Of a stretch of 64,000 nucleotides of DNA, positions 23,516 to 44,310 are shown piece after piece (within the stretch, counting starts at the first letter, position 1; every line of letters begins with the position of its first letter). The position numbers and the translations under genes are program-made. Source of the stretch: Hyphococcus sp. (GTDB lineage Bacteria; Pseudomonadota; Alphaproteobacteria; Caulobacterales; Parvularculaceae); the NCBI RefSeq assembly GCF_041986965.1, contig NZ_JBHIXB010000002.1, positions 547,501 to 611,500 of the forward strand. The letters are read 5' to 3'. Under the pieces are notes generated by a model that was given only the letters and a program-made list of their open reading frames with translations, was not told the DNA's origin and did not search any database.

Positions 23516-23981
23516 GGGAGCGGCTCTTTCCTTTTGCTCAATTTCCACACAGGCTCAGACCCAAAAGGGGCCGGCAGTCAGCATGTAGCGCCTGCAGGAC
23601 AGAATTTCAGCGACAAAATCACCGGCTTAATATCACAAGCGCAAGTACGTATGAAAGGCGCAGGGGCCGATTGCCTTTCTGGAGCGAAATCGGCGCCCTT
23701 ACGGTGGAACGGGCCTGCCCCTTGCGCCGCTCGAAATTTGTGCAACGCAAAAAGGCCGGCCGTAAAATTTTAGCCATTTCTGCCGCGTTCAAGCAATAAA
23801 GCTTATTTTCAATTGCAAAATTAGGTCCTCGCAGTTCGGTTTCAGAGCCTGGCGGGGCATGATTCTCAAAACAGGTAAGAATGGCTCCGGCTCCTGCGCC
23901 GGTGACACGGAGCGATGAAACCAAAACAAAGATCGTGTATAATAGCACGGGCACCGATACGCTTTGCGCGCTGACGACGGA

Positions 23982-24932
23982 ATGGACCACTCAACAATGG
24001 CGCATCAAATCGAACATTTCGCAACGAACGAAGTCATCCAGCAAGAACGGCTGGAGTTCTGGAACAGGATTGCAAGCGAGACATTCTGCGGACTTAGCAT
24101 CGATTCCGAAAGAGAGATTTTCGACGCCGAAATGTGGCGCTGGTCCATGGGCGACATTACGATGATCCGCCCAAGATCGCCGAACGCCGTCGTGCAGCGA
24201 AATGCACGCATCGCGCGCGCCGGCGGCGACCGCGTGATGCTTCATTTTCAGCATGCTGGCAGTTGCCTCCACACCCAGGCCAACAAAATTTACCATCTGC
24301 GCGCCGGCGACGCGATCCTCACTGACAGCAACGAGGATTATCGCGTCGATCTGTCCAGCGACAATGTCATGCTTGTGGTTGAGATGCCGCGCGACGCCAT
24401 ATCCGAACGCATGCAGGGTCTCAATGACGCATTGTCACACAAGATCGCCGGCGAAACGCCGTCGAGCCGCCTGCTCCACGATTTTGTCCTGTCGCTATGG
24501 CGCCAGGGCGACCAGAGTCATGCAGATCCGGAGCGTGCCAAAGGCGTCGCCGACATTTTCTACAATCTTCTGGCGATGGCGCTCACCGACAAGAATGTCA
24601 GCGTTCAAAATGACTCGCTTTTAATCAATCGCCTCACTGCACTCGTCAACGCCCGCATTTGCGACCCTGACTTTCGGCCATCCGATCTGGCGGACGAACT
24701 CGGCGTATCCATTCGCACCGTACAGAACGCATTTGCTGCAATCGGTGAAACGCCGTCAGCCTACATCCTGAACAAAAGGCTGGCCCATGCAGCAGATCGC
24801 CTTATCGCAGCGCCGCAGCTGAGCGTCACCAGCATCGCATATGAATCCGGATTCAATGATTGCAGCTATTTCACCCGCTGCTTCAAACACAAATACGGTG
24901 CGGCGCCGACAGCCTACCGCGCCGCACACTAA
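23982..24932 (+). CDS. AraC family regulator (FeaR-like)
   Basis: N-terminal ERLEFW...F, C-terminal double HTH (LADELGVSIRTVQNAF; IAYESGFNDCSYFTRCFK). Divergent from the ALDH. Start at 23982 or 23997. Confidence 0.9.
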   Translation: MDHSTMAHQIEHFATNEVIQQERLEFWNRIASETFCGLSIDSEREIFDAEMWRWSMGDITMIRPRSPNAVVQRNARIARAGGDRVMLHFQHAGSCLHTQANKIYHLRAGDAILTDSNEDYRVDLSSDNVMLVVEMPRDAISERMQGLNDALSHKIAGETPSSRLLHDFVLSLWRQGDQSHADPERAKGVADIFYNLLAMALTDKNVSVQNDSLLINRLTALVNARICDPDFRPSDLADELGVSIRTVQNAFAAIGETPSAYILNKRLAHAADRLIAAPQLSVTSIAYESGFNDCSYFTRCFKHKYGAAPTAYRAAH

Positions 24933-25375: not shown

Positions 25376-27865
25376 ATGAACTACAAATTATCTGTGAGTA
25401 TCGGAGCTATGGCGATCGCCCTGACGGGAATCGCGCAGGCTCAGGTCGACACCATTACGGTGACGGCGCAAAAGCGCGAAGAAAACGTTCAGGACGTTCC
25501 TATCGCCGTTTCGGCCTTTGACGGCCAGTCGCTTCAGGAGCGCGCGGTGACGAGCGTCGCCGGCTTGTCGAATATTACGCCGAACGTTTCGCTCGACGCC
25601 GGCACGCCCTTTTCTGGAGATACAGCGGTCATCTCCGCTTACATCCGCGGCATCGGCGCCAATGACTTCGCCTTCAATATCGACCCGGGCGTCGGCGTTT
25701 ATCTCGACGGCGTCTATCTCGCCCGCTCCATCGGCGCAAACCAGGACCTTCTCGATGTTGAACGCATTGAAGTCTTGAAAGGCCCGCAAGGAACGCTTTT
25801 TGGCCGGAACACGATCGGCGGCGCGATCTCTATCGTCACGCATACGCCGGGCGATGAATTTTCGTTTTCCGGAGATGTCACCACAGGCAGTTTCGAACTG
25901 CTTCAAGTTCGCGGCACTGTCGATGTTCCGCTGACCGACTCGCTGAAATCTTCGGTCAGCTTCTCGCTCAAGGATCGCCGCGGCTACATGAAGCGCATGC
26001 CATATCCGGGCTTCGAAAATTACAATGTCGAGCCCATCCAGACGATGCGCGCCGCGATATACGGCAATGAAGGCGATTATGAAGGCGGCACCGACGCCAA
26101 GAACGCCCGCATCAAACTGCTTTACGATAATGGCGGGCCTTTCAGGGCAACACTTTCTGGCGACTACGCCTATTCCAAGCAAAGCCAGCTCGCGAACAAG
26201 GTGATCGCAACGAATGGCGCCGTCTTCGCCGGCACCTATAATTGCGCCATCGAAGGCGTCCAGCCGCCGGCGGGCGACATGTCCTGCGGCGGCGGCCCAC
26301 CGCCGATCGCTTATGCAGGCGGCATTGGCGGTCTTAATTGGGTGGCCGACAATCCTCCGATCTTCGGGGTCAATGTGGACGCCGATCCCTATAATGACCG
26401 GTTGCCATATGATGACAGGTTCGTGACGGACGATATCGACACCACCTACGCCAACGGCAACAATGTTGCACGGCTTGAAAACTACGGCGTTCACCTGACG
26501 CTCGACTTCGATATTACTGAAAGCGCCGTCCTGAAGTTCATTTCCGCCTATCGTCATCTCGATTGGGATGTCGGCATGGACATCGACGGATCGCCGCTGA
26601 ATTTCCTTCACACCAGCTTCACGACTGACCAGTGGCAGTTCAGCCAGGAAGTTCAGTTGACGGGCTCGGCGCTTGACGATCGCATCAACTATGTCATCGG
26701 CGGCTATTACTTTGTCGAAGAAGGCGATCTGCATGACTACGTCACCTTCGCCGAAGGCCTCTTGCAGGTCGACGGGCCGAACTATCTGAAGACGAAGAAC
26801 TATGCAGGCTTCGGGCAGATCGACTTTGATGTGACGGAGTGGCTGACGATTTCGGCCGGCGGCCGCTACACCCACGAAAAGAAACAGTTTGAGGGCGCGC
26901 AGTCTGACCGCAACGGCCTCAACTATAAAATCGCCCAGCAATTCGGCGATCCGGATTGCATGACGCTCGTCCCAACCATCTCCGAGGCTTGCCGTATTGC
27001 GCAAGGCTTCCCGGTTCCGGGCGAGCCGCTGCGTTACTATATCGCCGGCATTCAGGAGAAGAGCTTCAACAACTTCTCGCCGAAAGTCAGCCTTCAGGTG
27101 AAACCGGCCGACGGCATCATGGTCTATGGCAGCTACTCCGAAGGCTATCGCACCGGCGGCTGGACAACGCGTCTGTCGAACCCGCTGCCCACGGCGCCGG
27201 ATTTCGACGAGGAAGAAGCGACAAGTTGGGAGGTCGGCTACAAGTCGACGCTCTTTGACAATCGCGTCCTGTTCAATGTGGCCGCCTTCACGACCAAATA
27301 TGAAGGCATCCAGCTGAACTTCCAGCAAGGCGTTTCGCCGACCGTGCAGAACGCCGGCGACGCGCGCATCAAGGGGCTTGAAGTCGAAACCGTCTTCGCG
27401 CCCGGCAACGGCTTGTCGGTCAACGCCTCGGTCGGTCTGATCGATGCGGAATATATCGACGTTCTCGGCCCCGCGCAGGTGCCCGCCAACCCGCTTCAGG
27501 GCGGCATCTTCCCGGGCGCAGACCTGCCGAAAACGCCGGACTTCAAGTTCAATGTCAGCCCGCGTTTCGAGTTCGATCCCGGCAATGGCGCCACGATCGT
27601 GCTGCTCGCGGATTACACACACACGTCGTCCATGTGGAACGACACCGAACGGACCTTCCTGCTTGAGCGTCCGTCTACGGATATTCTCAACCTCAGCGCC
27701 TCTTACGAGGAGCCGAACGGCCGCTGGAACATCACGGTCGGCGGCACAAATATTACCGACGAACGCTACCTGACTACCGGTCAGGCGCAAATCGCCGGCG
27801 GCCAGATCTACGGCACCTACAGCCGTCCGGCCGAATGGTATGCGCGTTTGGGCGTTAATTTCTAA
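25376..27865 (+). CDS. TonB-dependent outer-membrane receptor
   Basis: Signal peptide, TonB box DTITVTAQKREE, plug IEVLKGPQGTLFGRNTIGGAI and C-terminal ...GVNF. RBS GGGAGG. Confidence 0.95.
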   Translation: MNYKLSVSIGAMAIALTGIAQAQVDTITVTAQKREENVQDVPIAVSAFDGQSLQERAVTSVAGLSNITPNVSLDAGTPFSGDTAVISAYIRGIGANDFAFNIDPGVGVYLDGVYLARSIGANQDLLDVERIEVLKGPQGTLFGRNTIGGAISIVTHTPGDEFSFSGDVTTGSFELLQVRGTVDVPLTDSLKSSVSFSLKDRRGYMKRMPYPGFENYNVEPIQTMRAAIYGNEGDYEGGTDAKNARIKLLYDNGGPFRATLSGDYAYSKQSQLANKVIATNGAVFAGTYNCAIEGVQPPAGDMSCGGGPPPIAYAGGIGGLNWVADNPPIFGVNVDADPYNDRLPYDDRFVTDDIDTTYANGNNVARLENYGVHLTLDFDITESAVLKFISAYRHLDWDVGMDIDGSPLNFLHTSFTTDQWQFSQEVQLTGSALDDRINYVIGGYYFVEEGDLHDYVTFAEGLLQVDGPNYLKTKNYAGFGQIDFDVTEWLTISAGGRYTHEKKQFEGAQSDRNGLNYKIAQQFGDPDCMTLVPTISEACRIAQGFPVPGEPLRYYIAGIQEKSFNNFSPKVSLQVKPADGIMVYGSYSEGYRTGGWTTRLSNPLPTAPDFDEEEATSWEVGYKSTLFDNRVLFNVAAFTTKYEGIQLNFQQGVSPTVQNAGDARIKGLEVETVFAPGNGLSVNASVGLIDAEYIDVLGPAQVPANPLQGGIFPGADLPKTPDFKFNVSPRFEFDPGNGATIVLLADYTHTSSMWNDTERTFLLERPSTDILNLSASYEEPNGRWNITVGGTNITDERYLTTGQAQIAGGQIYGTYSRPAEWYARLGVNF

Positions 27866-27883
27866 ACTTCCCATGACGCCCCT

Positions 27884-27915
27884 GGCGGGACCTTCGGGTC
27901 CCGCCTCTTTTTTTT
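27884..27915 (+). terminator. Rho-independent terminator after the receptor gene, inside the apparent operon
   Basis: GGCGGGACC-TTCG-GGTCCCGCC followed by a T tract. Confidence 0.85.
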
Positions 27916-27942
27916 GCTTTGTCAAACAGTGAGGTCCAACAG

Positions 27943-28341
27943 GTGATCAAACGGCGCGACACAATCAAGACCCTGTCTCTGGCGCCCTTCGCGGCCGCCT
28001 TTCCCGCTACCGTGCTGGCTGAAGAATTTCCGGCCGCGCCGCCAGCGCTTTTTATCTATGACAAGCGCCTTCCGGCGGCCCGCGATCTGGCGCTTATGGC
28101 CATGAAAGCCGGCCATGCGCCGCACCCTGCTGACTTTGACGAGACCGGTTTCTGGCGCAGCGGCGAAAAGCCCGATTTGCGCGCCTACAGCACGGTCTTC
28201 GGCGCCACCACTCGCCGCGCCTATTTTGTATTCGAACAATTGTCCCGGCTCCACCGGAGCCGTAGACTGAGCGACGCCGCTATCCTTCATGACGATCGCG
28301 CCTTCAGTTTCTGGACCCTTCGCTTCCAACCCGTGCATTAG
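27943..28341 (+). CDS. Small hypothetical protein with Tat-like signal
   Basis: GTG after GAGG. KRRDTIKTLSLAPFAAAFPATVLA resembles a twin-arginine leader with an AxA-like cleavage site. Confidence 0.55.
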   Translation: MIKRRDTIKTLSLAPFAAAFPATVLAEEFPAAPPALFIYDKRLPAARDLALMAMKAGHAPHPADFDETGFWRSGEKPDLRAYSTVFGATTRRAYFVFEQLSRLHRSRRLSDAAILHDDRAFSFWTLRFQPVH

Positions 28342-28350
28342 GAGAAGACT

Positions 28351-28884
28351 ATGCCTGAAGCCGCCACCACCGAATTCTGGAAAGACATCAAGCCGATCAA
28401 GGATGTCTTCAAACCGGAATCCCTGGGCGACGCCTATGCGTCGAAAATCGCCGAGGGCGATGAGCGCTATTTCGTTCCGATTTCGGAAACCGTTTCGTCG
28501 AAACCCGTCTGGATTTCGCCGCAACGGAACATGTGGGCCGATGTTTTGATGTCGAAATCGGCCGGTCTTGTGAACCGGCATTATCACCCGCATCAAATTT
28601 TCGCCTATACGATCTCCGGAAAATGGGGCTATCTCGAACATGACTGGACCGCGACCGCAGGCGATTTCGTCTATGAATCGCCCGGCGAAGGCCATACGCT
28701 GATCGCCTATGACAGCCCCGAGCCCATGAAAGTCTTTTTTGTCGTCACCGGTCCCCTGATCTGGCTCGATGATGACGGCAATGGCGTCGGCCATTACGAT
28801 GTTCACGATTACATCGCCGCTGCGCGCGAGCATTACGAGAAAGTCGGCATCGGCGCGGACTATGTGAAAACCCTGTTCCGGTAG
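28351..28884 (+). CDS. dad: 2,4'-dihydroxyacetophenone dioxygenase (cupin)
   Basis: WISPQRNMWADVL, AGLVNRHYHPH, YTISGKWGYLEHDWTAT, GEGHTL and HYEKVGIGAD match recalled Alcaligenes 4HAP DAD. 177 aa. Confidence 0.85.
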   Translation: MPEAATTEFWKDIKPIKDVFKPESLGDAYASKIAEGDERYFVPISETVSSKPVWISPQRNMWADVLMSKSAGLVNRHYHPHQIFAYTISGKWGYLEHDWTATAGDFVYESPGEGHTLIAYDSPEPMKVFFVVTGPLIWLDDDGNGVGHYDVHDYIAAAREHYEKVGIGADYVKTLFR

Positions 28885-28887
28885 ATT

Positions 28888-29295
28888 ATGCGCGTCAACG
28901 CTCTCGATCATGTCAACATCCAGACGCTCGACATTGCGGCAACGGTAAAGTTTTACGCCGAGGTTCTCGATCTCGAAGCGCGCGACCCGCCGCCGCCGCT
29001 CGATCCAAAACTGGTGCAGTGGATGTATGACGCGGATGAGCGCGCGATCTTTCACCTGACGACGCCGGGCTCCATCATGGGGGATGGCGGAAAAAGGCAC
29101 CTGCCGCGCGACACAGGCCCCGTACATCATGTGGCGCTGAACTGTTCCGGCCATGACGCCATGGTGGACCGCCTCACCTCGCTGGGGCTCGACCACAAGC
29201 TCAATCATGTGACGGCGATCGATCTGAAGCAGATCTTTGTTCGCGATCCGAACGGCGTGCTTCTGGAACTCAACTATTTTTCGGGAAACCATTAG
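28888..29295 (+). CDS. VOC/glyoxalase family protein
   Basis: LDHVNI, FYAEVL, HHVAL and FVRDPNGVLLEL. Confidence 0.85.
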   Translation: MRVNALDHVNIQTLDIAATVKFYAEVLDLEARDPPPPLDPKLVQWMYDADERAIFHLTTPGSIMGDGGKRHLPRDTGPVHHVALNCSGHDAMVDRLTSLGLDHKLNHVTAIDLKQIFVRDPNGVLLELNYFSGNH

Positions 29296-29307
29296 GGAGG
29301 ACCGCCA

Positions 29308-29841
29308 ATGTCCGGGATGAAAGCGCCGCCCTCCGGCGCGTATAAAATTGTCGAGGTCGAGGAGCTTTACGGCGACCTCATCAAACAGCGAGGCCTTGAG
29401 GGCACCTATGTCGGCAAATCGGAGGAAGAGAGCCCCTGGGTTCCCTTTGGCGACAACGCCGCCATCCGTCACCTCGCCTTTGACGTTCGCCAGAATGTTT
29501 ATTGCAATATTCTCTGGATCAAATCGCCGGGCGTGATCGGCACCCACAAACATCGCGGGCCCGTCTGGGCGGTCGGTCTTGAGGGGACGTTCCGCTATCT
29601 CGAATATGACTGGGTCTGCGGGCCGGGCGAGTTCATCACCGAAATGCCCGGCACGGCGCACACGCTCGTCACCGATGATCCGAACGGCATGAAGGCGCTC
29701 TTCTGGATGCAGGGCGCCAATGAATTTTACAATGAACAGGGCGAGTTTGTCGAAACGCTCGACGTGTGGTGGTTCATGAATCACTATGAGAGCTACTGCA
29801 AAGAAAAAGGCCTTCCCATCAATAAGCAACTGTATCTGTGA
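29308..29841 (+). CDS. Second DAD-family (ChrR-like) cupin
   Basis: GTHKHRG, FRYLEYDW, EMPGTAHTL and HYESYC. Same three-His layout as DAD but divergent. Confidence 0.75.
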   Translation: MSGMKAPPSGAYKIVEVEELYGDLIKQRGLEGTYVGKSEEESPWVPFGDNAAIRHLAFDVRQNVYCNILWIKSPGVIGTHKHRGPVWAVGLEGTFRYLEYDWVCGPGEFITEMPGTAHTLVTDDPNGMKALFWMQGANEFYNEQGEFVETLDVWWFMNHYESYCKEKGLPINKQLYL

Positions 29842-29844
29842 GCC

Positions 29845-30669
29845 ATGAAAGCACTTGAACAATTTGACATTAAAGGCCGTTCCGCGATTGTCACCGGCGC
29901 CGCCTCGGGCATTGGCCTCTGCTATGCGGAAGCCATGGCGGAAGCCGGCGCCGGCGTTACGCTGACGGATGTTGATCTCGAAGGCGCTGAGCGCGAGGCC
30001 AAGCGACTGCGCGAGGAAGGCTATGACGCGCGCGCGGCGCATCTCGACGTCGTCGACCGCGCCGAAACGACGAAAGTCTTCGATGAACATGTCAAACATT
30101 ATGGCGGGCTCGACATCGCCTTCGCCAATGCCGGGATTGATCCTGGCGACGGCTTCGCCGCGCCGGAAGGCGGGCGCAACCCGAAAGGACAGGTCGACGC
30201 GTATAACCCGGAAGCCTGGGACCGCTGCATCGCCATCAATCTCACCGGCATTTACAACACCATGCGCGAGGCGGCGCGGGTGATGAAGGCCGGCGGCAAG
30301 CCGGGCTCCATCATTGCCACGTCTTCCAACGCCGGGCTTGTCGTCGAGCCGATTGTCGGCATGCCCTATCACCCGGCGAAGGCGGGCGTTACGCATATGG
30401 TTCATTATCTCGCCATGGAGCTCGCCGAATACAAGATCCGTGTGAACGCCATCGCGCCCGGCCCCTTCGTCACCAATATCGGCGGCGGCTGGCTGCAGGA
30501 TCCGGTTGTGCGCGAAGCGTGGGACCATGTGGTGCCGCTGGGACGCATCGCGGAGACCTATCAGATGAAACCGCTGGCGCATTACCTTGCTTCTGACGCG
30601 TCGAATTACGTTACCGGCTCGCAGATGCTGATCGACGGCGGCATGGCGCTCGGAGGCTTCAAGCAGTAA
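29845..30669 (+). CDS. SDR oxidoreductase
   Basis: TGAASGIG, ANAG, YHPAK, VNAIAPG and IDGG. Confidence 0.9.
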   Translation: MKALEQFDIKGRSAIVTGAASGIGLCYAEAMAEAGAGVTLTDVDLEGAEREAKRLREEGYDARAAHLDVVDRAETTKVFDEHVKHYGGLDIAFANAGIDPGDGFAAPEGGRNPKGQVDAYNPEAWDRCIAINLTGIYNTMREAARVMKAGGKPGSIIATSSNAGLVVEPIVGMPYHPAKAGVTHMVHYLAMELAEYKIRVNAIAPGPFVTNIGGGWLQDPVVREAWDHVVPLGRIAETYQMKPLAHYLASDASNYVTGSQMLIDGGMALGGFKQ

Positions 30670-31791
30670 ATGTCCGTACACGCGAAAGCCGCCATCTGCC
30701 GCGGGTCCGACGAGCCTTTCACTATTGAGGACGTCACACTTGACGCGTTGCGGCCCGATGAGTTGCAAGTGCGCATCATCGCCTGCGGCGTGTGTCATAC
30801 GGATATGGCGGTGCGCGATCAGCAGGTGCCGGTGCCCCTTCCCGCCGTGCTCGGTCATGAAGGCGCCGGCATTGTCGAAGCGGTCGGCTCGGCGGTGACG
30901 GCGGCGAAACCGGGCGACCGGGTGATCCTCAGCTTCAACAGCTGCGGCGATTGCCCGAGCTGCGAAATCGATGCGCCGACCTATTGCTACAATTTCTTTC
31001 CCTATAACTGGACCGGCATGCGCGCAGACGGCTCGCCGACGCTGATGCAGGACGGGGAGAAACTGAACGCCAACTTCTTCGGACAGTCGAGCTTTGCGAC
31101 GCAGGTGATTTCTCATGAACGCAATACGGTCCGCGTGCCGGACGAGGCGGCAGATTTGCCCTTGGAACGACTTTGCCCGCTTGGCTGCGGCCTGATGACC
31201 GGGGCCGGCGCCGTTCTTCGTAGCATGGACGTGCGCGCCGGGCTGCCCATTGCGGTATTCGGCGCCGGCACGGTCGGCATGGCGGCGATCATGGCGGCGA
31301 AGATCGCCGGCGCCGATCCGATCATCGCCGTCGATGTCAATGACGACCGCCTCGCGATGGCCAAAGATCTGGGCGCGACCCACATTTTCAATGCGAAAGA
31401 TGATGCGGTCGCCAAAATCCAGACGTTGTGTCCCACAGGACTCGGCTACGCCTTCGATACAACCGGTATCAACAAGGTGATCGAGGATGCGTGGAGCCTT
31501 CTTGCACCCAAAGGGATATGTGGGATCGTCGGCGCCTCCGATCCGGAGGACAACCTCACCTTTAACGAAGCGGCCTTTATGGGCGGCGGGCGCCGTGTCA
31601 TGGGCATTCTCGGCGGAGACAGCGATTTGAAAACCTTTCTGCCGGAGCTGATCGGCTATCACTTGAAAGGACAATTCCCGTTCGAAAAACTGATCGGCTA
31701 TTTCGACTTCGATCAAATCAATGACGCCATCGCAGCCAGTGAAAACGGATCGGTCGTAAAACCGGTGCTGCGGATCGGCGCGGAAGGCTGA
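30670..31791 (+). CDS. Zn-dependent aryl-alcohol dehydrogenase (XylB/AreB-like)
   Basis: CGVCHTD, GHEGAG, CGDCPSC...C, FFGQSSFA, PLGCGLMTGAG and GAGTVG. Confidence 0.85.
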   Translation: MSVHAKAAICRGSDEPFTIEDVTLDALRPDELQVRIIACGVCHTDMAVRDQQVPVPLPAVLGHEGAGIVEAVGSAVTAAKPGDRVILSFNSCGDCPSCEIDAPTYCYNFFPYNWTGMRADGSPTLMQDGEKLNANFFGQSSFATQVISHERNTVRVPDEAADLPLERLCPLGCGLMTGAGAVLRSMDVRAGLPIAVFGAGTVGMAAIMAAKIAGADPIIAVDVNDDRLAMAKDLGATHIFNAKDDAVAKIQTLCPTGLGYAFDTTGINKVIEDAWSLLAPKGICGIVGASDPEDNLTFNEAAFMGGGRRVMGILGGDSDLKTFLPELIGYHLKGQFPFEKLIGYFDFDQINDAIAASENGSVVKPVLRIGAEG

Positions 31792-31796
31792 CACAA

Positions 31797-32804
31797 ATGC
31801 GCGCAGTTGTTCATCAGGGGCTTCACGAAAAGCTCGCCGTCGAAACCCTCGCTGATCCGACCCCCGGCCTGGGCGAAGTTGTCCTGTCGGTCGAACGCTG
31901 CGGCATTTGCGGCTCCGATCTGCACATGACCGAGGACCCGGCCTTTGGCGCGGACAAAGGCTCCATCCTTGGTCATGAATTCGCCGGCGAAGTGATCGGC
32001 CTCGGCAAAGGCGTTGAACGCCTGAAAAAAGGCGATCTCGTCTCTGTCGTGCCCATCGCCAGTTGCGGCCAATGCCCGACTTGTCTCGCAGGCGAACCGG
32101 CCTGGTGCGAAAAGATGCAGCTTCAGGGCGGCGGCTATGGCGAATTCGCCGTCACCAATGAAAACCAGTGCGTCGCGCTGCCGAAATCGGCGAGCATGGA
32201 AGACGGCGCCATTATTGAACCCCTCGCCGTCGCCCTTCATGGCGTGATGACCGGCGAGCAAAAGCCTGGCGACAAGGTGTTGATCCTCGGCGCCGGCCCT
32301 ATCGGTCTCGGCGTCGCCTTCTGGGCCCGCCGGTTCGGCGCATCGAAAGTCGTGGTGCAGGACATCAACCGTTTTCAGGAACAACGCGCGCGGGAAATGG
32401 GCGCAACGGATTTCATTGTCGATCTCGAAGACCCTGTCGGCGCCGCCGAACGCGCCCTCGGCGGCAAAGCCGACATTGTTTATGAATGCGTCGGCGTGCC
32501 GGGCCTTATACCGCAGGCCGTCGACCAGGTGCGCATCAAGGGGACGGTGCTGATCCTCGGCCTTTGCACAAGGCCCGAGACTTTCGTTCCTTTCGTGGCG
32601 CTCTCGAAAGAGGTGCGGCTTCAAACCTCGGCCTTTTTCAAGCGCCAGGAATATGAGGCGGCGCTTGATGCTCTTGACGCCGGCGCGGCGGAGCCGCGCG
32701 CGCTCATCACCGACACAATCAGCCTCGATGCTGTGCCGGAGGTTTTTGAATCGCTTAAAAAACGCACGCATCAGTGCAAAGTGCTGATTAACCCGAAAGG
32801 CTGA
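31797..32804 (+). CDS. Zn-dependent alcohol dehydrogenase (MDR)
   Basis: CGICGSDLH, GHE, CGQCPTC...C, EPLAV and GAGPIG. Confidence 0.85.
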   Translation: MRAVVHQGLHEKLAVETLADPTPGLGEVVLSVERCGICGSDLHMTEDPAFGADKGSILGHEFAGEVIGLGKGVERLKKGDLVSVVPIASCGQCPTCLAGEPAWCEKMQLQGGGYGEFAVTNENQCVALPKSASMEDGAIIEPLAVALHGVMTGEQKPGDKVLILGAGPIGLGVAFWARRFGASKVVVQDINRFQEQRAREMGATDFIVDLEDPVGAAERALGGKADIVYECVGVPGLIPQAVDQVRIKGTVLILGLCTRPETFVPFVALSKEVRLQTSAFFKRQEYEAALDALDAGAAEPRALITDTISLDAVPEVFESLKKRTHQCKVLINPKG

Positions 32805-32807
32805 TCC

Positions 32808-33557
32808 ATGCGGTATGAAAACAAATCCGTTCTTGTCACCGGCGCGGCCACCGGCATCGGCCGCGCGACAGCGATCGCTTTCGCCCGGGAAGGCGCGAAA
32901 GTGATGATCGGCGATTACAATGACGCCGCCGAAGACACCGTCGCTGAGATCAAGGGCGGAGGCGGAACGGCGGCGTTCCTTCATTGTGACGTTTCCAAAC
33001 GCGATCAGGTCGACGCTCTGGTCGCCGCTGCTGTCAAAGCCCATGGCGGCCTTGACGCCGCCTTCAATAACGCCGGCGTCTTTCCGCCGGAACAAATGTT
33101 CGCCGATTTCGATGAAGAGACGTTCGACCGCACGATTGCAATCAACCTCAAGGGCGTTTTTCTGTGCATGAAGGCGCAGCTTCCCGTCATGGTGAAACAG
33201 GGAAAAGGCGCCATCGTCAACACGTCTTCCGTCGGCGGCGTCATCGCCAATCCCGGCATGGCGCCCTATATCGCATCGAAGCATGGCGTTCTGGGACTGA
33301 CAAAAACTGCGGCGATTGAATATGTGAAACTCGGCGTGCGGATTAACGCCATCTGCCCGGGCTTCGTTCGCACGCCCATGACAGAGCCCTGGTTCCAGCG
33401 CGAAGGCTTTCTCGAAGCGTTTCTGCCCACCTCGCCCATTGGCCGCCATGCGCAGCCCGAAGAGATGGCCGGAACGGTTCTGCATCTTTGCTCCGACGAG
33501 GCAAGCTTCACTAACGGCGCCGTCATTCTCGTCGACGGCGGGCAAACCGCAATCTGA
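32808..33557 (+). CDS. SDR oxidoreductase
   Basis: TGAATGIG, FNNAG, YIASKHG and RINAICPG. Confidence 0.9.
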   Translation: MRYENKSVLVTGAATGIGRATAIAFAREGAKVMIGDYNDAAEDTVAEIKGGGGTAAFLHCDVSKRDQVDALVAAAVKAHGGLDAAFNNAGVFPPEQMFADFDEETFDRTIAINLKGVFLCMKAQLPVMVKQGKGAIVNTSSVGGVIANPGMAPYIASKHGVLGLTKTAAIEYVKLGVRINAICPGFVRTPMTEPWFQREGFLEAFLPTSPIGRHAQPEEMAGTVLHLCSDEASFTNGAVILVDGGQTAI

Positions 33558-33605
33558 TTGGCTGCGATCTAAACGACCGCGGATATAACCGCAGACAGGG
33601 AGGAC

Positions 33606-34493
33606 ATGATGAAACTTTTCACCCGCGCGCTCGCCGCGCTGCTCTTTTTCACGTCGCCGGCATTCGCGGCAGACGCGCCGCTGGAGGTCGAAGTCCTCCA
33701 GACCAGCGCAGGTTCGCTCTACTCCAATGTGGTTCTGATCAAGGGCGAAGAAAAAGCCGTGCTTGTCGATCCGCCCTTCACCATGGCGGACGCGCACCGC
33801 GCCGCCGCCATGGTGCTCGACAGCGGCAAGGAGCTCGAAACCATCTTCGTCACCCACGATCATCCTGACCATTTCTTCGCCATGGAAGTGCTCACCGACG
33901 CCTTCCCAAATGCAAAAGTCGTTGCGCATCCGACCGTCGTCGCTGACATCTGGCGCTCCATGCCCTTCAAGGTGAAACGCTGGGGCCCGATGCTCGGCGC
34001 GAACGGCCCCAAAACACCCACGGCGCCCGCCGCGCTCGACGGTGATGTCATCATGCTCGAAGGCCATGAGTTGAAAGTGCTGGGGCCCATGCAGGGCGAT
34101 CATCATCATGCGACGGCGCTTTACGCTCCTTCTATCGACGCCCTTTTTGCGGGCGATCTTCTTTTCAACGAGATGTATCTCTGGCTCGGCGAGCACGGCC
34201 GCAAGGAAACACGCGAATGGGGCGAGGCCGTTGACGATCTCGCCGCCCTGGAGCCGGAGATTGTCGTTCCGGGACACGCAAAGCCCGGCATGCCCAACGA
34301 CGCCTCTAGCCTCGCCTATACCGGCGGCTTTATCGAGTTCTGGCTCGACGCGACGCGCAAGGCAAAGAACAGCGAAGAATTGCGCGCCATGGTGATCGAA
34401 CAATATCCGAACTCGATCGATGTGCTCGGCGATTTCCTGCTCGGCAATTCATCCAAGGTCGCCATGGGCGAAGAACCGCGCTGGGAGGAATAA
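33606..34493 (+). CDS. Exported metallo-beta-lactamase-fold hydrolase
   Basis: Sec signal (...SPAFA|AD), THDHPDH, GDHH, GDLL and VPGH. Confidence 0.8.
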   Translation: MMKLFTRALAALLFFTSPAFAADAPLEVEVLQTSAGSLYSNVVLIKGEEKAVLVDPPFTMADAHRAAAMVLDSGKELETIFVTHDHPDHFFAMEVLTDAFPNAKVVAHPTVVADIWRSMPFKVKRWGPMLGANGPKTPTAPAALDGDVIMLEGHELKVLGPMQGDHHHATALYAPSIDALFAGDLLFNEMYLWLGEHGRKETREWGEAVDDLAALEPEIVVPGHAKPGMPNDASSLAYTGGFIEFWLDATRKAKNSEELRAMVIEQYPNSIDVLGDFLLGNSSKVAMGEEPRWEE

Positions 34494-35390: not shown

Positions 35391-36182
35391 TCAGCTTCGC
35401 ATGATCCCCAGCATCCCGCCGTCCACGGCGATGGACTGCGCATTGATATATTGCCCGGCGTCCGACAACAGGAAGGCGGCGAGCCAGCCCGCCTCCTCCG
35501 GCGTTCCGACACGTCCCTGCGGCACCATGCCGTTCAGGATTTTGAGCGTCGCATCCATGTCGCCGCCCGCAAGATGATCGGCCAGCGGCTCCAGCAGCGG
35601 CGTCTTGATCAGGCCGGGGATCAGGCAGTTGATACGGATATTGTGTTTGGCGACCTCAGCCGCCGTCGCGCGCACGAGCCCCAGCACCGCATGTTTCGAC
35701 ATGACGTAAGCGGGCGTCATGGGCGCGCCAAGTTTCGACGTCAACGAGCCGGTGCAGACGATCGACCCGCCGCCTTGTTCGATCATGCCGGGCAGGACTT
35801 GCTGAATAAGGATGAACATCGATTTCAGATTGACGTTCATCACTTCATCATAGGCGCCGAGCGAATAATCCGGGATCGGCGCCGCAGGACCGGACATGCC
35901 GGCATTAGCGAAAACGCCGTCAACACCGCCCCACAATTCCTTCGCCTTGTCCGCAAGCGCCGTAATATCCGTTTCGGCGCCCATATCGGCGGCGAGATAG
36001 CGTCCTTCCCCGCCTGCTTTCGTGACGGCGTCGGCGACTTTTTTCAGTTTGTCTTCGGACCGCGCAGCGACAAGAACTTTCGCGCCGAGCGAGCCCATGA
36101 TTTCCGCCGACGCTGCGCCGATGCCGGTCGAGGCGCCGGTGACGATAATGCGCTTTCCGGCAAGCGAAATGGCGTTCTTCAT
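35391..36182 (-). CDS. SDR oxidoreductase
   Basis: TGASTGIG, ANAG, YVMSKH and VDGG. ATGA overlap with the upstream amidohydrolase. Confidence 0.9.
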   Translation of the reverse strand: MKNAISLAGKRIIVTGASTGIGAASAEIMGSLGAKVLVAARSEDKLKKVADAVTKAGGEGRYLAADMGAETDITALADKAKELWGGVDGVFANAGMSGPAAPIPDYSLGAYDEVMNVNLKSMFILIQQVLPGMIEQGGGSIVCTGSLTSKLGAPMTPAYVMSKHAVLGLVRATAAEVAKHNIRINCLIPGLIKTPLLEPLADHLAGGDMDATLKILNGMVPQGRVGTPEEAGWLAAFLLSDAGQYINAQSIAVDGGMLGIMRS

Positions 36183-37048
36183 TTCAGGCCCAAAAGCTTC
36201 GCCGCATTGTCTTTCATGATCATGGGCATCACTTCTTCACGGAAACCGGCGTTCTGCGCAGCGGCCATCCATTTGTCCGGCTTGATCAGCGGGAAGTCGG
36301 AGCCGAACAGCATTTTGTGTTTCAGTTGCGTGTTGGCGTAGTGAATGACCTGTTTCGGAAAATATTTCGGCGACCAGCCCGACAGGTCGATGTAAACATT
36401 CTCCTTGTGGAGCGCCATCGACAGCGATTCATCCGTCCATGGCCATGACGGGTGCGCGAGAATGATTTTCATGTCGGGGAAGTCGACCGCCACATCATCC
36501 ACCATCATCGGCTGACCGTATTTGAGGCGAATGCCGCCGCCGCCTCTCATGCCGGTGCCCATGCCCGAATGGCCCGTATGGAAGATCGCCGGAAGACCAT
36601 ATTCGGCGATCACTTCATAGATCGGCCAGGCCATGGGGTCGTTGGGGTGAAAATTCTGGATCGGCGGATGGAACTTGAAGCCCTTGACGCCATAGTCCTC
36701 GATCATCCGCCGCGCTTCGATGGCGCCGAATTTCGACTTGTGCGGGTCGATGGAGGCGAACGCCATCATGATGTCGTCATTGTCGTTGGCGAACTGGGCG
36801 ATTTCTTCATTCCGGATGCGTTTGATGCCCGTGCCGGATTCCATGTCCACCGTGAACATGACAAACGCGATCTGCTGTTCGCGGTAATATTCAATCGTCT
36901 CGGGAATGGTCGGGCGCTTGCGGTCCGCCTTGAAATAGATCGACGCCGCGTCGAGAAACTTGCCCATGATCGGGTCTTCCGGGTCGTTGCACGACACCTC
37001 CGCATGGGTGTGAATATCGATGGCTTTGATCTTGTTGAGGTCGATCAC
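36179..37048 (-). CDS. 4-hydroxyphenyl-beta-ketoacyl-CoA hydrolase (CouO-like amidohydrolase)
   Basis: GTG at 37048 after AAGGAG. IDIHTHAE, KFHP, FHTGHSGMG...GGGIRLKY, LAHPSWPW, IDLSGWSPKYFP and FGSDFP. Confidence 0.75.
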   Translation of the reverse strand: MIDLNKIKAIDIHTHAEVSCNDPEDPIMGKFLDAASIYFKADRKRPTIPETIEYYREQQIAFVMFTVDMESGTGIKRIRNEEIAQFANDNDDIMMAFASIDPHKSKFGAIEARRMIEDYGVKGFKFHPPIQNFHPNDPMAWPIYEVIAEYGLPAIFHTGHSGMGTGMRGGGGIRLKYGQPMMVDDVAVDFPDMKIILAHPSWPWTDESLSMALHKENVYIDLSGWSPKYFPKQVIHYANTQLKHKMLFGSDFPLIKPDKWMAAAQNAGFREEVMPMIMKDNAAKLLGLK

Positions 37049-37121
37049 GAGAGACTCCTTTGACGCACGCCGCCGTTTTAAGCCAATTCCGGCCCCAAAG
37101 GACAGCCTAGCGGGAAAGGTT

Positions 37122-37973
37122 TCACGCCCCTTCGCGAAGCATCGTGGCCAGCTTGTCGATCCCTGAAAGCAGGAGTTCCGGGCGCTCCACCGGATCTTCA
37201 CGCGATTTGAACGCCGCTTCGTCATAGATGCCGGTCGTCACGCCCACCGAATAGGCGCCGCCGAGATTGGCCATTTTCGGCTCCAGCTGCGGATCGTCGC
37301 CGACAACGACAACGGATGCGTCCGGGGAAAGCCCCATGCGGGACTTTGCAACCGCGAGCGCATCCAGCGAAGGTTTACCGAGGACATGCGCCTCGGCGCC
37401 GGTCAGCGCTTTCAGCATGGCGTTGATCGCGAAACTCGTGCCGATGCCGCGTTTATCGGCGCCGGCGGCCGCGAAGAACGGCACATCCGACGCCGTGGTC
37501 AGATGCGCGCCCGCCCAGATCGCATGCACCGCCGCTTCGAGGTCCGGAAAGGTGAACTCCCGGAACCAGCCCACATAGATCGCATCATAAGGCCCGCCGT
37601 CGCCCGGCGCCTCGACGACATTGAGGCCGAGATCGGCGAGCGGCTTCCACACCGGCTCCTTGCCGAGCACGAGAATGCGCTCCGCGCCTTTTTCTTTCAG
37701 ATAATGCGCCGCCGCGGTCGAAGGCGTCATGAACTCCTCGTCGCGCACATCAAGGCCGGTCGCGCGCATGGCGTTCGCATACCATTCGGGCGTTCGCGCC
37801 GTGCCGTTCGTGAAGACCTGATAAGGAACGCCGCGCTCACGTAGAATGCTGAGTGTTTCAACGGCGCCCGGCAACGCTTTCTGGCCGGCGCTCGCCTTGT
37901 CGCCAAGGACGAGCGTGCCGTCCATGTCGAAGATGAACCCTTCGGCTTTGTGTAATCGTTCAGGTCCACTCAT
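37122..37973 (-). CDS. acvF: HAD-IIA phosphatase, AcvF/HpeD-like
   Basis: FDMDGTL, FTN, GKPS and VGDD. Last gene of the kinase-carboxylase run. Confidence 0.8.
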   Translation of the reverse strand: MSGPERLHKAEGFIFDMDGTLVLGDKASAGQKALPGAVETLSILRERGVPYQVFTNGTARTPEWYANAMRATGLDVRDEEFMTPSTAAAHYLKEKGAERILVLGKEPVWKPLADLGLNVVEAPGDGGPYDAIYVGWFREFTFPDLEAAVHAIWAGAHLTTASDVPFFAAAGADKRGIGTSFAINAMLKALTGAEAHVLGKPSLDALAVAKSRMGLSPDASVVVVGDDPQLEPKMANLGGAYSVGVTTGIYDEAAFKSREDPVERPELLLSGIDKLATMLREGA

Positions 37974-39451
37974 CAGGACAGTCCCGCTCCTTTGTAAAGC
38001 GCCATGCGGAAGCCGGGACGCTCCACGGCGATGTCCGGCGCGTCAGGCCGCGCGGCCAGTTGTTTCAGCAAGTTGAAAATCGGCGCCGCCTCGGGCGTAT
38101 AGGTCGCGCGGCTGCGCCCAGAGGCTAACATCGCCTCCACCTGATCTTCCGGCATGACGGCGCGGAAAAGAAATTCTTCATCGTCCATGTCTTCGCCGAA
38201 CTGCTTGCGCAGGTCTTTGTACGCCGGGAACATGGGTTCGTTCTGGATTTCCTTCATTCGCGGGCGGTCGAGAATGGTCTCCTTGACCGCTGCGTCGATG
38301 GGGCTTGTGGGTCGCCCGAACTTGCCCATGACATAACGCAGGATCTGATCGGAAACCTGCGCATAGCGCTTCGTCCCGATAACGTTAAAGAGCGCCTGGC
38401 TCATCACCATTTGCGGGAACGGCGTCACCATGATCGGATGGCCGAGTTCGGCGCGCACGCGCTCGGTCTCTTCGATCACTGCATCGAACTTATGACCAAG
38501 ATTGAGCTCATCGAGCTGGCGCCGGGTCGTGGTCATGACGCCGCCGGCGATCTGATGTCGGAGAAAGCTGGCGTCAAAACTTTGCGGGCGGCCGGGCGGC
38601 AATCCTTCAGCTTGCGCCAGCCGCGTCCAGTAATTCTTGACAGTCGACAACGCCGCATCATTGACGTTCACCGTATGACCGGCCTCGCGCAAATTCGCCA
38701 CCATGCGCGTCGCTTCCGGCAGGGACGAGCCGTCGCCAAGCGGCCCGACACCCACATGCACCGCGTCGATAATCCCGAGATCGGCGGCGGCGAGCGAGGT
38801 GAGCGGTCCGTAGCCGATGGTGCAATGCGCGTGGATTTCAAGAGGCTTGGCGCCGATGGCGGCCTTTACCGCCGGCGCCAGCGTCTTCACGCGATCAGGC
38901 GACATCAGCCCGCCCGGATCTTTCAGATAAAAAAGATCGACGTGATTGCTCTTGGCCAGCTTGGCCGCAAAGTCCGCGTAAAACTCGTCGGTGTGAATAT
39001 CCGAGAGCGTAAAGGTCAGCGCGCCCATGACGTCGGCGTCGCCCTCTTCCTTGATAATGCGCGCCGCTTCGATCACCGCGTCGACGTCATGCATGGGATC
39101 GAGGACGATGAAGCGGCGAATGCCCGCCATCTGCAGCCGGCGATAGGCGAGCCGCATGAATTCCGGGTCCGCCTGTTGCCATGCCACAAAGCGAAGCCCG
39201 GTTGTAATGAATTGCAAGGGCACACTCGGCATCGCCGCGCGCATACGCTTGATGCGCTCCCAGGGGTTGTTCTGGAAATAGCGGATCGCGACCGCCATGG
39301 TCGTCGACGAGGTGAAATCGCAGGCGTGAAAGCCGACGCGCTCCATCGCCCCGGCGATTTCCAAAATCTGCGCGGTGTTGAGGCCCGTAGCGCCCCAAAG
39401 CGACTGGTTGCCGTCGCGGATCGACACATCGACGAGCTTGATCTCAGCCAT
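37973..39451 (-). CDS. acvE: Carboxyltransferase subunit (pyruvate carboxylase-like) of acetovanillone carboxylase
   Basis: DVSIRDGNQS, YLKDPGG, HAHCT, HQIAGG and MVTPFPQ. Start at 39451. Confidence 0.8.
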   Translation of the reverse strand: MAEIKLVDVSIRDGNQSLWGATGLNTAQILEIAGAMERVGFHACDFTSSTTMAVAIRYFQNNPWERIKRMRAAMPSVPLQFITTGLRFVAWQQADPEFMRLAYRRLQMAGIRRFIVLDPMHDVDAVIEAARIIKEEGDADVMGALTFTLSDIHTDEFYADFAAKLAKSNHVDLFYLKDPGGLMSPDRVKTLAPAVKAAIGAKPLEIHAHCTIGYGPLTSLAAADLGIIDAVHVGVGPLGDGSSLPEATRMVANLREAGHTVNVNDAALSTVKNYWTRLAQAEGLPPGRPQSFDASFLRHQIAGGVMTTTRRQLDELNLGHKFDAVIEETERVRAELGHPIMVTPFPQMVMSQALFNVIGTKRYAQVSDQILRYVMGKFGRPTSPIDAAVKETILDRPRMKEIQNEPMFPAYKDLRKQFGEDMDDEEFLFRAVMPEDQVEAMLASGRSRATYTPEAAPIFNLLKQLAARPDAPDIAVERPGFRMALYKGAGLS

Positions 39452-40790: not shown

Positions 40791-40800
40791 GCCTGTTCGC

Positions 40801-41262
40801 CTACTCCGGCTTCACCTTCATCAGGATCGATGTCGCCTCGATAGGTTCGGCATTCTCCGGAACAATCTCGACGATCTCGCCTTCGACGCCCGCATGAACA
40901 GGGTTCATCAACTTCATGGTTTCGATGATCGCAACCACGGTGTCAGGCTTCACCTTGTGGCCAACCTCTACAAAGGGCGGGGCGCCCGGCTGCGGCGCGC
41001 GATAGAAGGTGCCCGGCAGCGGCGGTTTGATAATGAGCAGACCGTCCTCTTCCGGGACAACATCCGGTTCGACGGCGGACGCGACGGTCTTCGCGGCCTC
41101 GCCGCCAATCGGCGTCCATTCCTGCGTAAACCCGTCGCCGGAGCGTTTCACGCGCAGGCGAAAACGCGCGGTTTCAATATCGAGCACGTCATAAGATGAC
41201 TTCGCAAGAATTGAGGCGATTTCCTCAACATCTTCGGGGCTTAGCGGTAGATCATGGCTCAT
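40801..41262 (-). CDS. acvC: Biotin carboxyl carrier protein
   Basis: GTFYRAP and IETMKLMN (biotinylated Lys). Confidence 0.85.
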   Translation of the reverse strand: MSHDLPLSPEDVEEIASILAKSSYDVLDIETARFRLRVKRSGDGFTQEWTPIGGEAAKTVASAVEPDVVPEEDGLLIIKPPLPGTFYRAPQPGAPPFVEVGHKVKPDTVVAIIETMKLMNPVHAGVEGEIVEIVPENAEPIEATSILMKVKPE

Positions 41263-41265
41263 GAC

Positions 41266-42318: not shown

Positions 42319-42327
42319 CTCGTAAAC

Positions 42328-44303: not shown

Positions 44304-44310
44304 TTTTATT

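Follow-up and report, generated by a model that had tools for sequence, protein, structure and literature searches.

A Hyphococcus gene module that pairs DAD-family cupins with NAD-type dehydrogenases, a candidate for the cleavage of aryl alpha-hydroxyketones

In a 64-kb stretch of DNA from a marine Hyphococcus, called the window here, we analyzed a gene cluster at positions 25376-34493 that encodes two cupins related to 2,4'-dihydroxyacetophenone dioxygenase (DAD), named DAD1 and DAD2, together with four dehydrogenases, and that is preceded by a gene for an AraC-family regulator. The feature is real and conserved, and consists of one well-known enzyme plus one uncharacterized paralog subfamily. 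The explanation that we favor, with a confidence only a little above even, is an accessory catabolic module in which the dehydrogenases would bring the oxygenated C2 or C3 side chain of phenolics to the alpha-hydroxyketone state, the cupins would cleave the product with O2, and the AraC protein would serve as the sensor. The original prediction for this stretch, made from the sequence alone, regarded the system as undescribed. This was incorrect, as the cluster was noted in Erythrobacter sp. SG61-1L in 2015 and in Novosphingobium MBES04 in 2023, and part of it is present in Sphingobium SYK-6 beside the gene at the vceA position. In these three lignin-degrading sphingomonads the cluster had been noticed without being assigned a function, and we regard it less as a surprise than as a promising lead that lends itself to direct tests. 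The coordinates of the open reading frames (ORFs), profile searches with Pfam and NCBIfam and sequence matches in the PDB led to the following features:

23964-24932, + strand: AraC-family regulator (Pfam AraC_binding_2 and HTH_18), the probable regulator of the module
25376-27865, + strand: TonB-dependent outer-membrane receptor (TBDR; Pfam Plug and TonB_dep_Rec_b-barrel) with a 22-strand barrel and a signal peptide
27884-27915, + strand: intrinsic-terminator-like hairpin, stem at 27884-27905 with 9 bp (8 GC), then T8
27919-28341, + strand: ORF of 140 amino acids (aa) with a signal of the twin-arginine translocation (Tat) type (KRRDTIK, hydrophobic stretch, VLA), a lineage-specific accessory gene
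28351-28884, + strand: DAD1 (cupin 1; Pfam Cupin_7 and Cupin_2), ortholog of DAD, Fe(II) three-His cupin
28888-29295, + strand: VOC/glyoxalase-fold protein of 135 aa (Pfam Glyoxalase), accessory
29308-29841, + strand: DAD2 (cupin 2; Pfam Cupin_7), divergent DAD-family cupin
29845-30669, + strand: SDR1, NAD-type short-chain dehydrogenase (SDR; Pfam adh_short_C2)
30670-31791, + strand: ADH1, Zn-dependent NAD-type aryl (benzyl) alcohol dehydrogenase (ADH)
31797-32804, + strand: ADH2, Zn-dependent dehydrogenase of the polyol/2,3-butanediol/threonine dehydrogenase group
32808-33557, + strand: SDR2, classical NAD-type SDR (Pfam match), accessory
33606-34493, + strand: exported metallo-hydrolase of the metallo-beta-lactamase (MBL) fold (Pfam Lactamase_B, Sec-type signal, HDHPDH), accessory

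The cupins and dehydrogenases of the module

All ten ORFs between 25376 and 34493 lie on the plus strand and are separated by 53, 9, 3, 12, 3, 0, 5, 3, and 48 nt, so that both the co-orientation and the predicted gaps of mostly 0-12 nt were found as claimed. Pfam and NCBIfam agreed with the predicted protein family for every gene but the 140-aa ORF, and inspection of the motifs showed that the catalytic residues are intact throughout the enzymes of the module. As the gene order recurs in more than 40 of 55 full-length related loci (see below), the arrangement is not due to chance. Long minus-strand ORFs that overlap the cluster, such as the one at 27922-31794, were taken as artefacts of the G+C content.

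Judged by its sequence, DAD1 is clearly a true ortholog of the characterized DAD with an intact active site. It matched the DAD structure 4p9g with an E value of 1e-90 over residues 5-177 and was 69% identical to the Alcaligenes enzyme over the aligned residues. In the DAD of Alcaligenes sp. 4HAP (EC 1.13.11.41; PDB 4P9G, 5BPX), His76, His78, and His114 are the iron ligands and Ser49, Trp61, Asp63, and Tyr153 form a polar pocket, whereas Tyr93 and Glu108 were called invariant in DADs, the former having a key stabilizing role towards peroxy intermediates and the latter being suggested to shuttle O2 into the site (PMC4219425). DAD1 shares this iron site (H76, H78, and H114 in Alcaligenes numbering), Y93 and E108, and the pocket residues S49, W61, D63, W137, and Y153. 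Fold, three-His site, Tyr93/Glu108, pocket, and full-length similarity were all found, and the original designation of the first cupin as a DAD was thus upheld. The two systems differ in their surroundings. In Alcaligenes the ketol is made by hydroxylation of 4-hydroxyacetophenone, whereas the Hyphococcus module contains no monooxygenase; its additions are four NAD-type dehydrogenases, a paralogous cupin whose pocket is changed, a receptor, and an AraC regulator. No assayed DAD-family enzyme from a lignin degrader was found in the open-access literature (subscription papers were not covered).

DAD2 shares the fold and the catalytic residues with Alcaligenes DAD, but the similarity is much lower (E value of 1e-18, 30% identity). 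The residues H76, H78, H114, Y93, and E108 are retained, whereas the pocket is altered by the replacements S49I, W61Y, D63N, L135N, W137F, and Y153F. Judged by its sequence, DAD2 is an old paralog of DAD and belongs to a separate large subfamily. Because the pocket is replaced and the identity is 30%, the protein should be placed in the wider DAD family and should not be named 2,4'-dihydroxyacetophenone (2,4'-DHAP) dioxygenase. The earlier description of the second cupin as DAD-like therefore stands for the iron ligands, Tyr93, and Glu108, but not for the substrate pocket. Homologs with 65-88% identity occur in sphingomonads (orthologs with 75-88%), Burkholderiaceae, Steroidobacteraceae, Chromohalobacter, and Streptomyces; their records are labeled "DAD family protein" or, wrongly, "tRNA modification GTPase." The latter name is an annotation error that has spread to several database records and to gene 1160 of MBES04, and because of it the second cupin was overlooked in the MBES04 study. 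We also considered an obligate DAD1/DAD2 heteromer but rejected it, as 10 of 55 loci have DAD1 with no other gene of the cluster, and as DAD1 is missing beside the DAD2-type cupin in 7 of 16 loci and from the SYK-6-type genome altogether. With regard to chemistry rather than sequence, DAD2 can be likened to the acetylacetone dioxygenase Dke1, which is likewise a mononuclear Fe(II) cupin with three His ligands and uses O2 to break a C-C bond adjacent to a carbonyl. Dke1, however, cleaves beta-diketones, whereas DAD2 keeps the DAD-specific Tyr and Glu.

A second DAD2-type locus was observed in the same genome (contig C3, 485371-488278), in which a divergent MmyB-type regulator gene is followed by genes for a beta-keto acid cleavage enzyme (BKACE), an SDR, and two tandem DAD2-like cupins. 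The tandem cupins are 65-68% identical to DAD2, and the BKACE shares 70% identity with its counterpart at the vceA position in the SYK-6-type genome. This is a second connection between DAD2-type cupins and vanilloyl-acetate metabolism.

All four dehydrogenases carry an Asp after strand beta2, which by the general rule for Rossmann folds indicates a preference for NAD and on which our assignment of NAD-type enzymes is based. TGxxxGIG and YxxxK are present in SDR1 and SDR2. The best PDB relatives of SDR1 were the Candida parapsilosis carbonyl reductases 3ctm and 7dld (E value of 6e-36), which have been characterized on 2-hydroxyacetophenone and 1-phenyl-1,2-ethanediol; we take this as a lead and not as a test. 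SDR2 had generic PDB relatives, none of them informative. Both Zn-dependent enzymes retain the ligands of the catalytic and the structural zinc. ADH1, with the motifs CGVCHTD, GHEGAG, and C-x2-C-x2-C-x7-C, matched benzyl alcohol dehydrogenase 1f8f (5e-93) and 5tnx (4e-104), and by similarity and Zn ligands it has the features of aryl/benzyl alcohol dehydrogenases of the XylB type. The nearest PDB relatives of ADH2 were 4ej6, 6ie0 ((R,R)-butanediol dehydrogenase), and sorbitol dehydrogenases (E values of about 1e-40), and NCBIfam families of polyol dehydrogenases matched below their cutoffs. ADH2 falls into a group with the dehydrogenases of (R,R)-butanediol, sorbitol, and threonine, whose target is a secondary alcohol beside another oxygen function. 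A set of four NAD-type enzymes comprising a carbonyl-reductase-like SDR, a benzyl-alcohol dehydrogenase, and a butanediol/polyol dehydrogenase agrees with the predicted fitness for side-chain oxidation.

Distribution, invariant unit, and the receptor junction

The host is not a sphingomonad; Hyphococcus belongs to the Parvularculaceae in the order Parvularculales. The loci nearest to the one in the window were those of Hyphococcus aureus (98%) and other Hyphococcus (93-94%). DAD1 was present in 5 of 25 Hyphococcus genomes and in none of 16 genomes of other genera of the order. DAD2-type cupins were found in 2 of 401 evenly drawn Alphaproteobacteria, with the genome studied here counted; in the family to which Sphingobium lignivorans belongs, 25 of 201 genomes had them. 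The closest relatives beyond the genus were from Sphingomonadaceae (about 82% for DAD1 and 77-85% for DAD2). The module is an accessory trait in Hyphococcus with a patchy occurrence in the genus, and because of this patchiness it was probably acquired horizontally and exchanged with sphingomonads.

Gene order was compared in two sets of loci. The first was anchored on DAD1 and comprised 55 loci with full flanks. A receptor gene precedes DAD1 in 42 of them, and SDR1 (42), ADH2 (40), and DAD2 (39) are similarly frequent; SDR2 was found in 26, usually beside the MBL gene (24), VOC in 7, and ADH1 in 2. The succession TBDR-DAD1-DAD2-SDR1-ADH2 is kept in 39-42 of these loci. In 10 loci, mostly from non-sphingomonads, DAD1 stands alone. 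As this sample is biased towards DAD1, a DAD2-anchored set was examined, composed of 15 sphingomonad loci found by the DAD2-type cupin alone and the SYK-6-type locus. Behind the cupin, SDR1 was present in 15 of these 16 loci, ADH2 in 13, and ADH1 in 10, while DAD1 is adjacent in 9 and a receptor in 6. These counts identify a DAD2-type cupin, SDR1, and one or two Zn-ADHs as the invariant unit, and DAD1, the receptor, AraC, VOC, SDR2, MBL, and the Tat protein are add-ons. The synteny survey, which the original prediction had proposed as a check, thus revealed that AraC, receptor, DAD1, DAD2, SDR1, and ADH2 recur in dozens of sphingomonad genomes, whereas the Tat protein, VOC, SDR2, and MBL, originally counted as parts of the module, are accessory. 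In most versions from Novosphingobium there is a third cupin together with a VanA-type Rieske oxygenase, and in many a VAO-type flavoprotein as well. In Novosphingobium fuchskuhlense (locus L053, 11646-12716 and 13903-15522), for example, a VanA-type Rieske oxygenase gene comes after the cupins and a VAO/PCMH-type flavoprotein gene after SDR1; the window has neither.

The AraC gene, which lies outside the range originally considered, belongs to the conserved set, a homolog with 40-53% identity being present at the same position in most related loci. A receptor ortholog with 49-69% identity is located directly upstream of DAD1 in the 42 loci mentioned above. In the window, the hairpin begins 19 nt past the receptor stop codon, inside the spacer 27866-27918. 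A strong GC-rich hairpin is present in the receptor-DAD1 spacer (mostly 57-90 nt) of nearly all of about 60 related loci; these hairpins differ in sequence between lineages, and many are followed by a T run. Since the transcript start of the MBES04 DAD cluster was placed about 100 bp upstream, the hairpin may sit in the leader of the enzyme operon rather than just ending the receptor transcript. From DAD1 to MBL the genes have the properties of a single operon, being on the same strand with gaps of 0-12 nt (48 nt before MBL) and with weak terminator matches only. No terminator comparable to the hairpin (nine pairs, eight of them G-C, and T8) was listed in this stretch, and the weaker consensus matches were about as frequent as in shuffled sequence. 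A single operon led by the receptor gene does not agree with the hairpin and T8, nor with a 1.0-fold response of the MBES04 gene upstream of DAD compared to 45- to 89-fold for DAD itself. The notion of a "TonB-receptor-led" module was therefore abandoned, given the conserved hairpin in between, the lack of co-induction of the MBES04 upstream gene, and the absence of a receptor in 10 of the 16 DAD2-anchored loci. The receptor is a conserved neighbor, and a transcript shared with the enzymes is only putative.

Relation to lignin-responsive clusters and proposed function

In Novosphingobium MBES04, a four-gene cluster led by DAD showed the strongest induction in response to guaiacylglycerol-beta-guaiacyl ether (GGGE) and to a lignin preparation from eucalyptus (Kumagawa et al. 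2023, PMC10866074). The values reported there are as follows:

MBENS4_1157, AraC: unchanged with GGGE and lignin
MBENS4_1158, "GroES", i.e. Zn-ADH: 2.9-fold with GGGE, 7.6-fold with lignin
MBENS4_1159, SDR: 7.8-fold with GGGE, 18.4-fold with lignin
MBENS4_1160, "tRNA modification GTPase": 16.5-fold with GGGE, 34.6-fold with lignin
MBENS4_1161, DAD: 44.6-fold with GGGE, 88.6-fold with lignin
MBENS4_1162, "membrane protein": unchanged with GGGE and lignin

With vanillin, genes 1158-1161 remained near 1-fold. [quoted passage not shown] The authors considered three of the four genes as hypothetical and the enzymology as still to be done (all PMC10866074). By annotation and gene order only, MBES04 genes 1161-1158 and the AraC gene are the core DAD1-DAD2-SDR1-ADH2 plus AraC; the order DAD, DAD2-type cupin, SDR, Zn-ADH with an adjacent AraC gene is common to this cluster (G-II/L-III) and the window. 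Beyond this core the window has VOC, aryl-ADH, SDR2, MBL, the Tat protein, and the receptor, and it comes from another alphaproteobacterial order. The original prediction had named a lack of induction by lignin-derived compounds as the outcome that would speak against it, but the homologous MBES04 core is induced by lignin, GGGE, GHP, and 2,4'-DHAP, a result in favor of the prediction.

A further relative is found in Erythrobacter sp. SG61-1L, where the gene of the SDR "474" (SZ64_16365) was described as directly following two DAD genes and preceding a gene for a benzyl alcohol dehydrogenase (Palamuru et al. 2015, PMC4651090), an arrangement like DAD1-(VOC)-DAD2-SDR1-ADH1 in the window. With NAD+, the enzyme oxidizes the benzylic C-alpha alcohol of the two alpha-S isomers of GGE (kcat/Km of 0.013 and 0.08 per uM per s). 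Its identity to LigD is 15-20%, and it falls outside the Lig C-alpha dehydrogenase clade (PMC4651090). Compared to the LigD/L/N/O clade it is thus an outsider, a weak catalyst assayed on the dimer GGE only.

The genome of Sphingobium lignivorans (GCA_014203955.1), which represents the SYK-6 type, contains a block of VOC, cupin, SDR, aryl-ADH, and Zn-ADH genes in the same order as the window, with 43%, 60-62%, 76%, 67%, and 67% identity, respectively. The block is followed by genes for a thiamine pyrophosphate (TPP) enzyme, BKACE, and an IclR regulator and then by desA, a hydrolase gene, and ferA. The 930 nt between ferA and desA fit the map of SYK-6, where desA reportedly lies 929 bp downstream of ferA. 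Counting back from desA, which is SLG_25000, we take the block to be SLG_24900-24940 and the ADH1 position to be SLG_24930. A DAD1 ortholog is lacking in this genome and a receptor gene is not adjacent; the TPP enzyme and BKACE genes follow instead. In the map of the DesX preprint the IclR gene is desX (SLG_24970) with vceA beside it, and the gene order matches that of the SYK-6-type genome (bioRxiv 10.1101/2020.07.27.224295). SLG_24930 was expressed as SpADH2 and oxidized benzyl, 4-hydroxybenzyl, and syringyl alcohols with NAD+ (PMC12052742), so that the aryl-ADH of the block has been assayed; ADH1 of the window is 67% identical to the SYK-6-type gene at this position. The TPP-dependent enzyme behind the cupin-SDR-ADH-ADH block in Sphingobium has the fold of benzoylformate decarboxylase/benzaldehyde lyase (L086, 13198-14814; L135, about 17813). 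Among the reactions possible with this fold are the cleavage of aryl alpha-hydroxyketones and the decarboxylation of aryl-glyoxylates, in keeping with the ketol theme.

Established so far are the gene content, the intactness of the catalytic residues, the conservation of synteny, and, from publications on homologs, induction and some of the enzymology. From these we infer as follows which substrates are used, in which direction each dehydrogenase works, what DAD2 catalyzes, and what the receptor and the MBL protein do. The substrates would be phenolics with vicinal oxygen functions on the side chain, i.e. aryl-glycols, aryl-glycerols, aryl-propanediols, and the matching diketones; alpha-hydroxyacetovanillone and Hibbert ketones are plausible as putative substrates. 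The TonB-dependent receptor would carry the compound or a conjugate across the outer membrane, and the exported MBL protein, where present, may trim the conjugate in the periplasm. Cytoplasmic NAD-dependent dehydrogenases would then set the side chain to the alpha-hydroxyketone state, with SDR1 acting at the benzylic C-alpha, ADH2 at C-beta, and ADH1 on primary aryl alcohols and aldehydes. The Fe(II) cupins would split the C-alpha-C-beta bond with O2 and without CoA or ATP, yielding 4-hydroxybenzoate, vanillate, or syringate and formate, acetate, or glycolate. DAD1 would take the primary ketol ArCO-CH2OH and DAD2 another, probably secondary or bulkier ketol. The AraC protein would turn on the enzyme genes upon phenylpropanone- or phenylethanone-type signals. 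A more specific proposal, which we make tentatively and expect to fail rather than to hold, is that DAD2-type cupins with SDR1 and ADH2 would perform an O2-dependent, CoA-free C-alpha-C-beta cleavage converting C3 lignin monomers (candidates are aryl-glycerols, aryl-propanediols, and G-diketone) to vanillate or syringate. DAD2 would then represent a new specificity class of Fe(II) dioxygenases for secondary aryl alpha-ketols, the candidate substrates being the Hibbert ketones GP-1 and GP-2 and alpha-keto-arylglycerols, and the unit would supply the unassigned enzymes of the G-diketone pathway in N. aromaticivorans.

Several observations weigh against a function in ketol cleavage as outlined above. 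Of the enzyme types in the module, only the distant Alcaligenes DAD has been assayed on an alpha-hydroxyketone. The Hyphococcus module has no monooxygenase, and therefore acetophenones cannot feed it directly. GHP is the best inducer of the MBES04 cluster, yet it accumulates in this strain and therefore is not the substrate. SDR 474 performs poorly as a GGE dehydrogenase, and that it is orthologous to SDR1 was derived from the published neighbors and not from sequence. The receptor gene is set off from the enzyme genes by a terminator-like hairpin, and the MBES04 gene upstream of DAD, a putative receptor gene, is uninduced. Finally, the Rieske oxygenase and flavoprotein genes added in other lineages suggest that the entry substrates differ between lineages.

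The module might instead serve the catabolism of HPV, which we judge unlikely. ADH1 or another dehydrogenase would oxidize HPV to vanilloyl acetaldehyde, DAD2 would cleave this beta-dicarbonyl in the manner of Dke1, and the resulting aryl-glyoxal or ketol would pass to the VOC protein and DAD1. HPV is the strongest inducer of the MBES04 promoter, but despite the strong induction of the cluster it accumulates and does not support growth. The position of the VOC-cupin-SDR-ADH-ADH block of the SYK-6 type, which lies within two genes of desX and of the BKACE gene where vceA is expected, and the BKACE-SDR-cupin-cupin order of the second Hyphococcus locus with its 70% identical BKACE would agree with such a role; SYK-6, however, already has a complete route via HpvZ, aldehyde dehydrogenase, VceA, and VceB. 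In N. aromaticivorans F199 the enzymes after vanilloyl acetaldehyde are unknown (PMC11837543), leaving steps to which such a function could be assigned. A glyoxalase-fold protein would suit a glyoxal product, but VOC is present in only 7 of the 55 loci, and DAD2 keeps Tyr93 and Glu108, which are DAD-specific and tied to ketol chemistry.

Even more doubtful is an origin of the substrate from non-lignin phenolics that yield 4-hydroxyphenacyl alcohol, in which case lignin would be connected with the module only incidentally. Such phenolics could be metabolites of bisphenol A, derivatives of tyrosol or phenylethanoids, glycols from octopamine or catecholamines, and diols of the styrene-glycol type. 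The DAD1 pocket is nearly identical to that of an enzyme characterized on the 4-hydroxy substrate without further substituents, and the MBES04 promoter also responds to DHA. In addition, 4-hydroxyphenacyl alcohol is a bisphenol A metabolite, for the conversion of which a Sphingomonas genome was assigned a DAD gene (PMC6366072). The VAO-type flavoprotein of some Novosphingobium versions would hydroxylate 4-alkylphenols. However, the eucalyptus lignin preparation and guaiacyl compounds induce more strongly than DHA, the neighboring genes in the window, SYK-6, and SG61-1L serve guaiacyl/syringyl catabolism, and the SYK-6 ortholog of ADH1 accepts syringyl alcohol. It is also improbable, in our view, that the ten genes do not form one system and that only the cupin-SDR-ADH unit, with or without DAD1, cooperates, the receptor, Tat protein, SDR2, and MBL being unrelated or loosely related. 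Such a looser association would account for the terminator-like hairpin after the receptor gene in the window and nearly all related loci, the uninduced gene upstream of DAD in MBES04, the loss of the receptor from 10 of 16 DAD2-anchored loci, the absence of MBL and SDR2 from about half of the DAD1-anchored loci and their varying order, and the sulfotransferase-like gene that occupies the slot of the Tat protein in H. luteus. But a receptor gene adjoining DAD1 in 42 of 55 loci from several genera is hard to explain without a functional link, the gaps from DAD1 to MBL are short, and no comparably strong terminator was listed among these genes.

If the favored explanation, a module that cleaves side-chain alpha-hydroxyketones with O2, is true, it would provide a short route that strips hydroxylated C2/C3 side chains from lignin monomers with O2 only and bypasses those steps for which the pathways of acetovanillone and hydroxypropiovanillone depend on ATP, biotin, and CoA. 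It would explain the lignin-induced cluster of MBES04 (PMC10866074) and assign enzymes to the GP-1/GD step of G-diketone catabolism (PMC8612281), for which "one or more unknown enzymes" were reported to convert GP-1 or the diol GD onwards in N. aromaticivorans. For strains that funnel mixed lignin streams to vanillate, it would offer two small, easily expressed cupins and their dehydrogenase partners. New from the window are a non-sphingomonad version of the cluster, an invariant unit of DAD2-type cupin, SDR1, and Zn-ADHs instead of DAD1 and receptor, and the conserved hairpin between receptor and enzyme genes.

Accessory genes and genomic surroundings

The 140-aa ORF had no match in Pfam or NCBIfam. 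Its N-terminus, with RR and a hydrophobic stretch, is consistent with a Tat signal and thus with the predicted Tat protein. The status of a core part was rejected, as the gene was found only in the closest Hyphococcus relatives and is replaced by another gene in H. luteus. In H. aureus the protein is 55% identical, with a conserved C-terminal half, compared to 93-98% for its neighbors. The slot between the receptor gene and DAD1 contains an ORF of the Sulfotransfer_2 family in H. luteus and a related metagenome-assembled genome (L008, 5116-6240; L010, 8950-9909) and no gene in sphingomonads; it seems to be an insertion site for unrelated genes.

The prediction of an exported MBL protein was confirmed by a Sec-type signal peptide and the sequence HDHPDH at residue 84, which conforms to HxHxDH. 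The NCBIfam family Vmh scored 164 bits at a cutoff of 430, and the scores were also under the cutoffs of true beta-lactamases, so that no narrower family can be given. A PDB search gave no match for the MBL protein and no informative relative for the VOC protein.

Upstream of the module, the window contains genes for an enoyl-CoA hydratase, an aldehyde dehydrogenase, a MarR regulator, a major facilitator superfamily transporter, and a glutathione S-transferase, a gene of the lignostilbene-dioxygenase type, and LigW-like amidohydrolase genes. Ferulate-type genes are also present, and a LigM-like aminomethyltransferase gene lies further on. Downstream, on the other strand, there are genes for a LigF-like glutathione S-transferase, an SDR, and an amidohydrolase and a set resembling acvABCDEF. 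Because the flanks carry genes for lignin aromatics, the module sits within a lignin-aromatic catabolic island. The acv-like cluster (36179-44142, minus strand), which resembles the acetovanillone kinase, carboxylase, and phosphatase genes, adjoins the DAD module; the region that also takes in an accompanying LysR gene is 36179-45234. It encodes an amidohydrolase, a HAD phosphatase, a carboxyltransferase, a biotin carboxylase, a biotin carboxyl carrier protein, and two subunits resembling phenylphosphate synthase (PPDK_N and PEP-utilizer). In SYK-6, AcvABCDEF and VceAB act on acetovanillone and acetosyringone and likewise strip off a keto side chain of two carbons, with vanillate or syringate as the product. 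This pathway needs ATP, biotin-dependent carboxylation, and acetyl-CoA, whereas the DAD route would need only O2 and would start from a ketol and not from a methyl ketone. Two different routes for the removal of C2 keto side chains thus appear as neighbors in the window.

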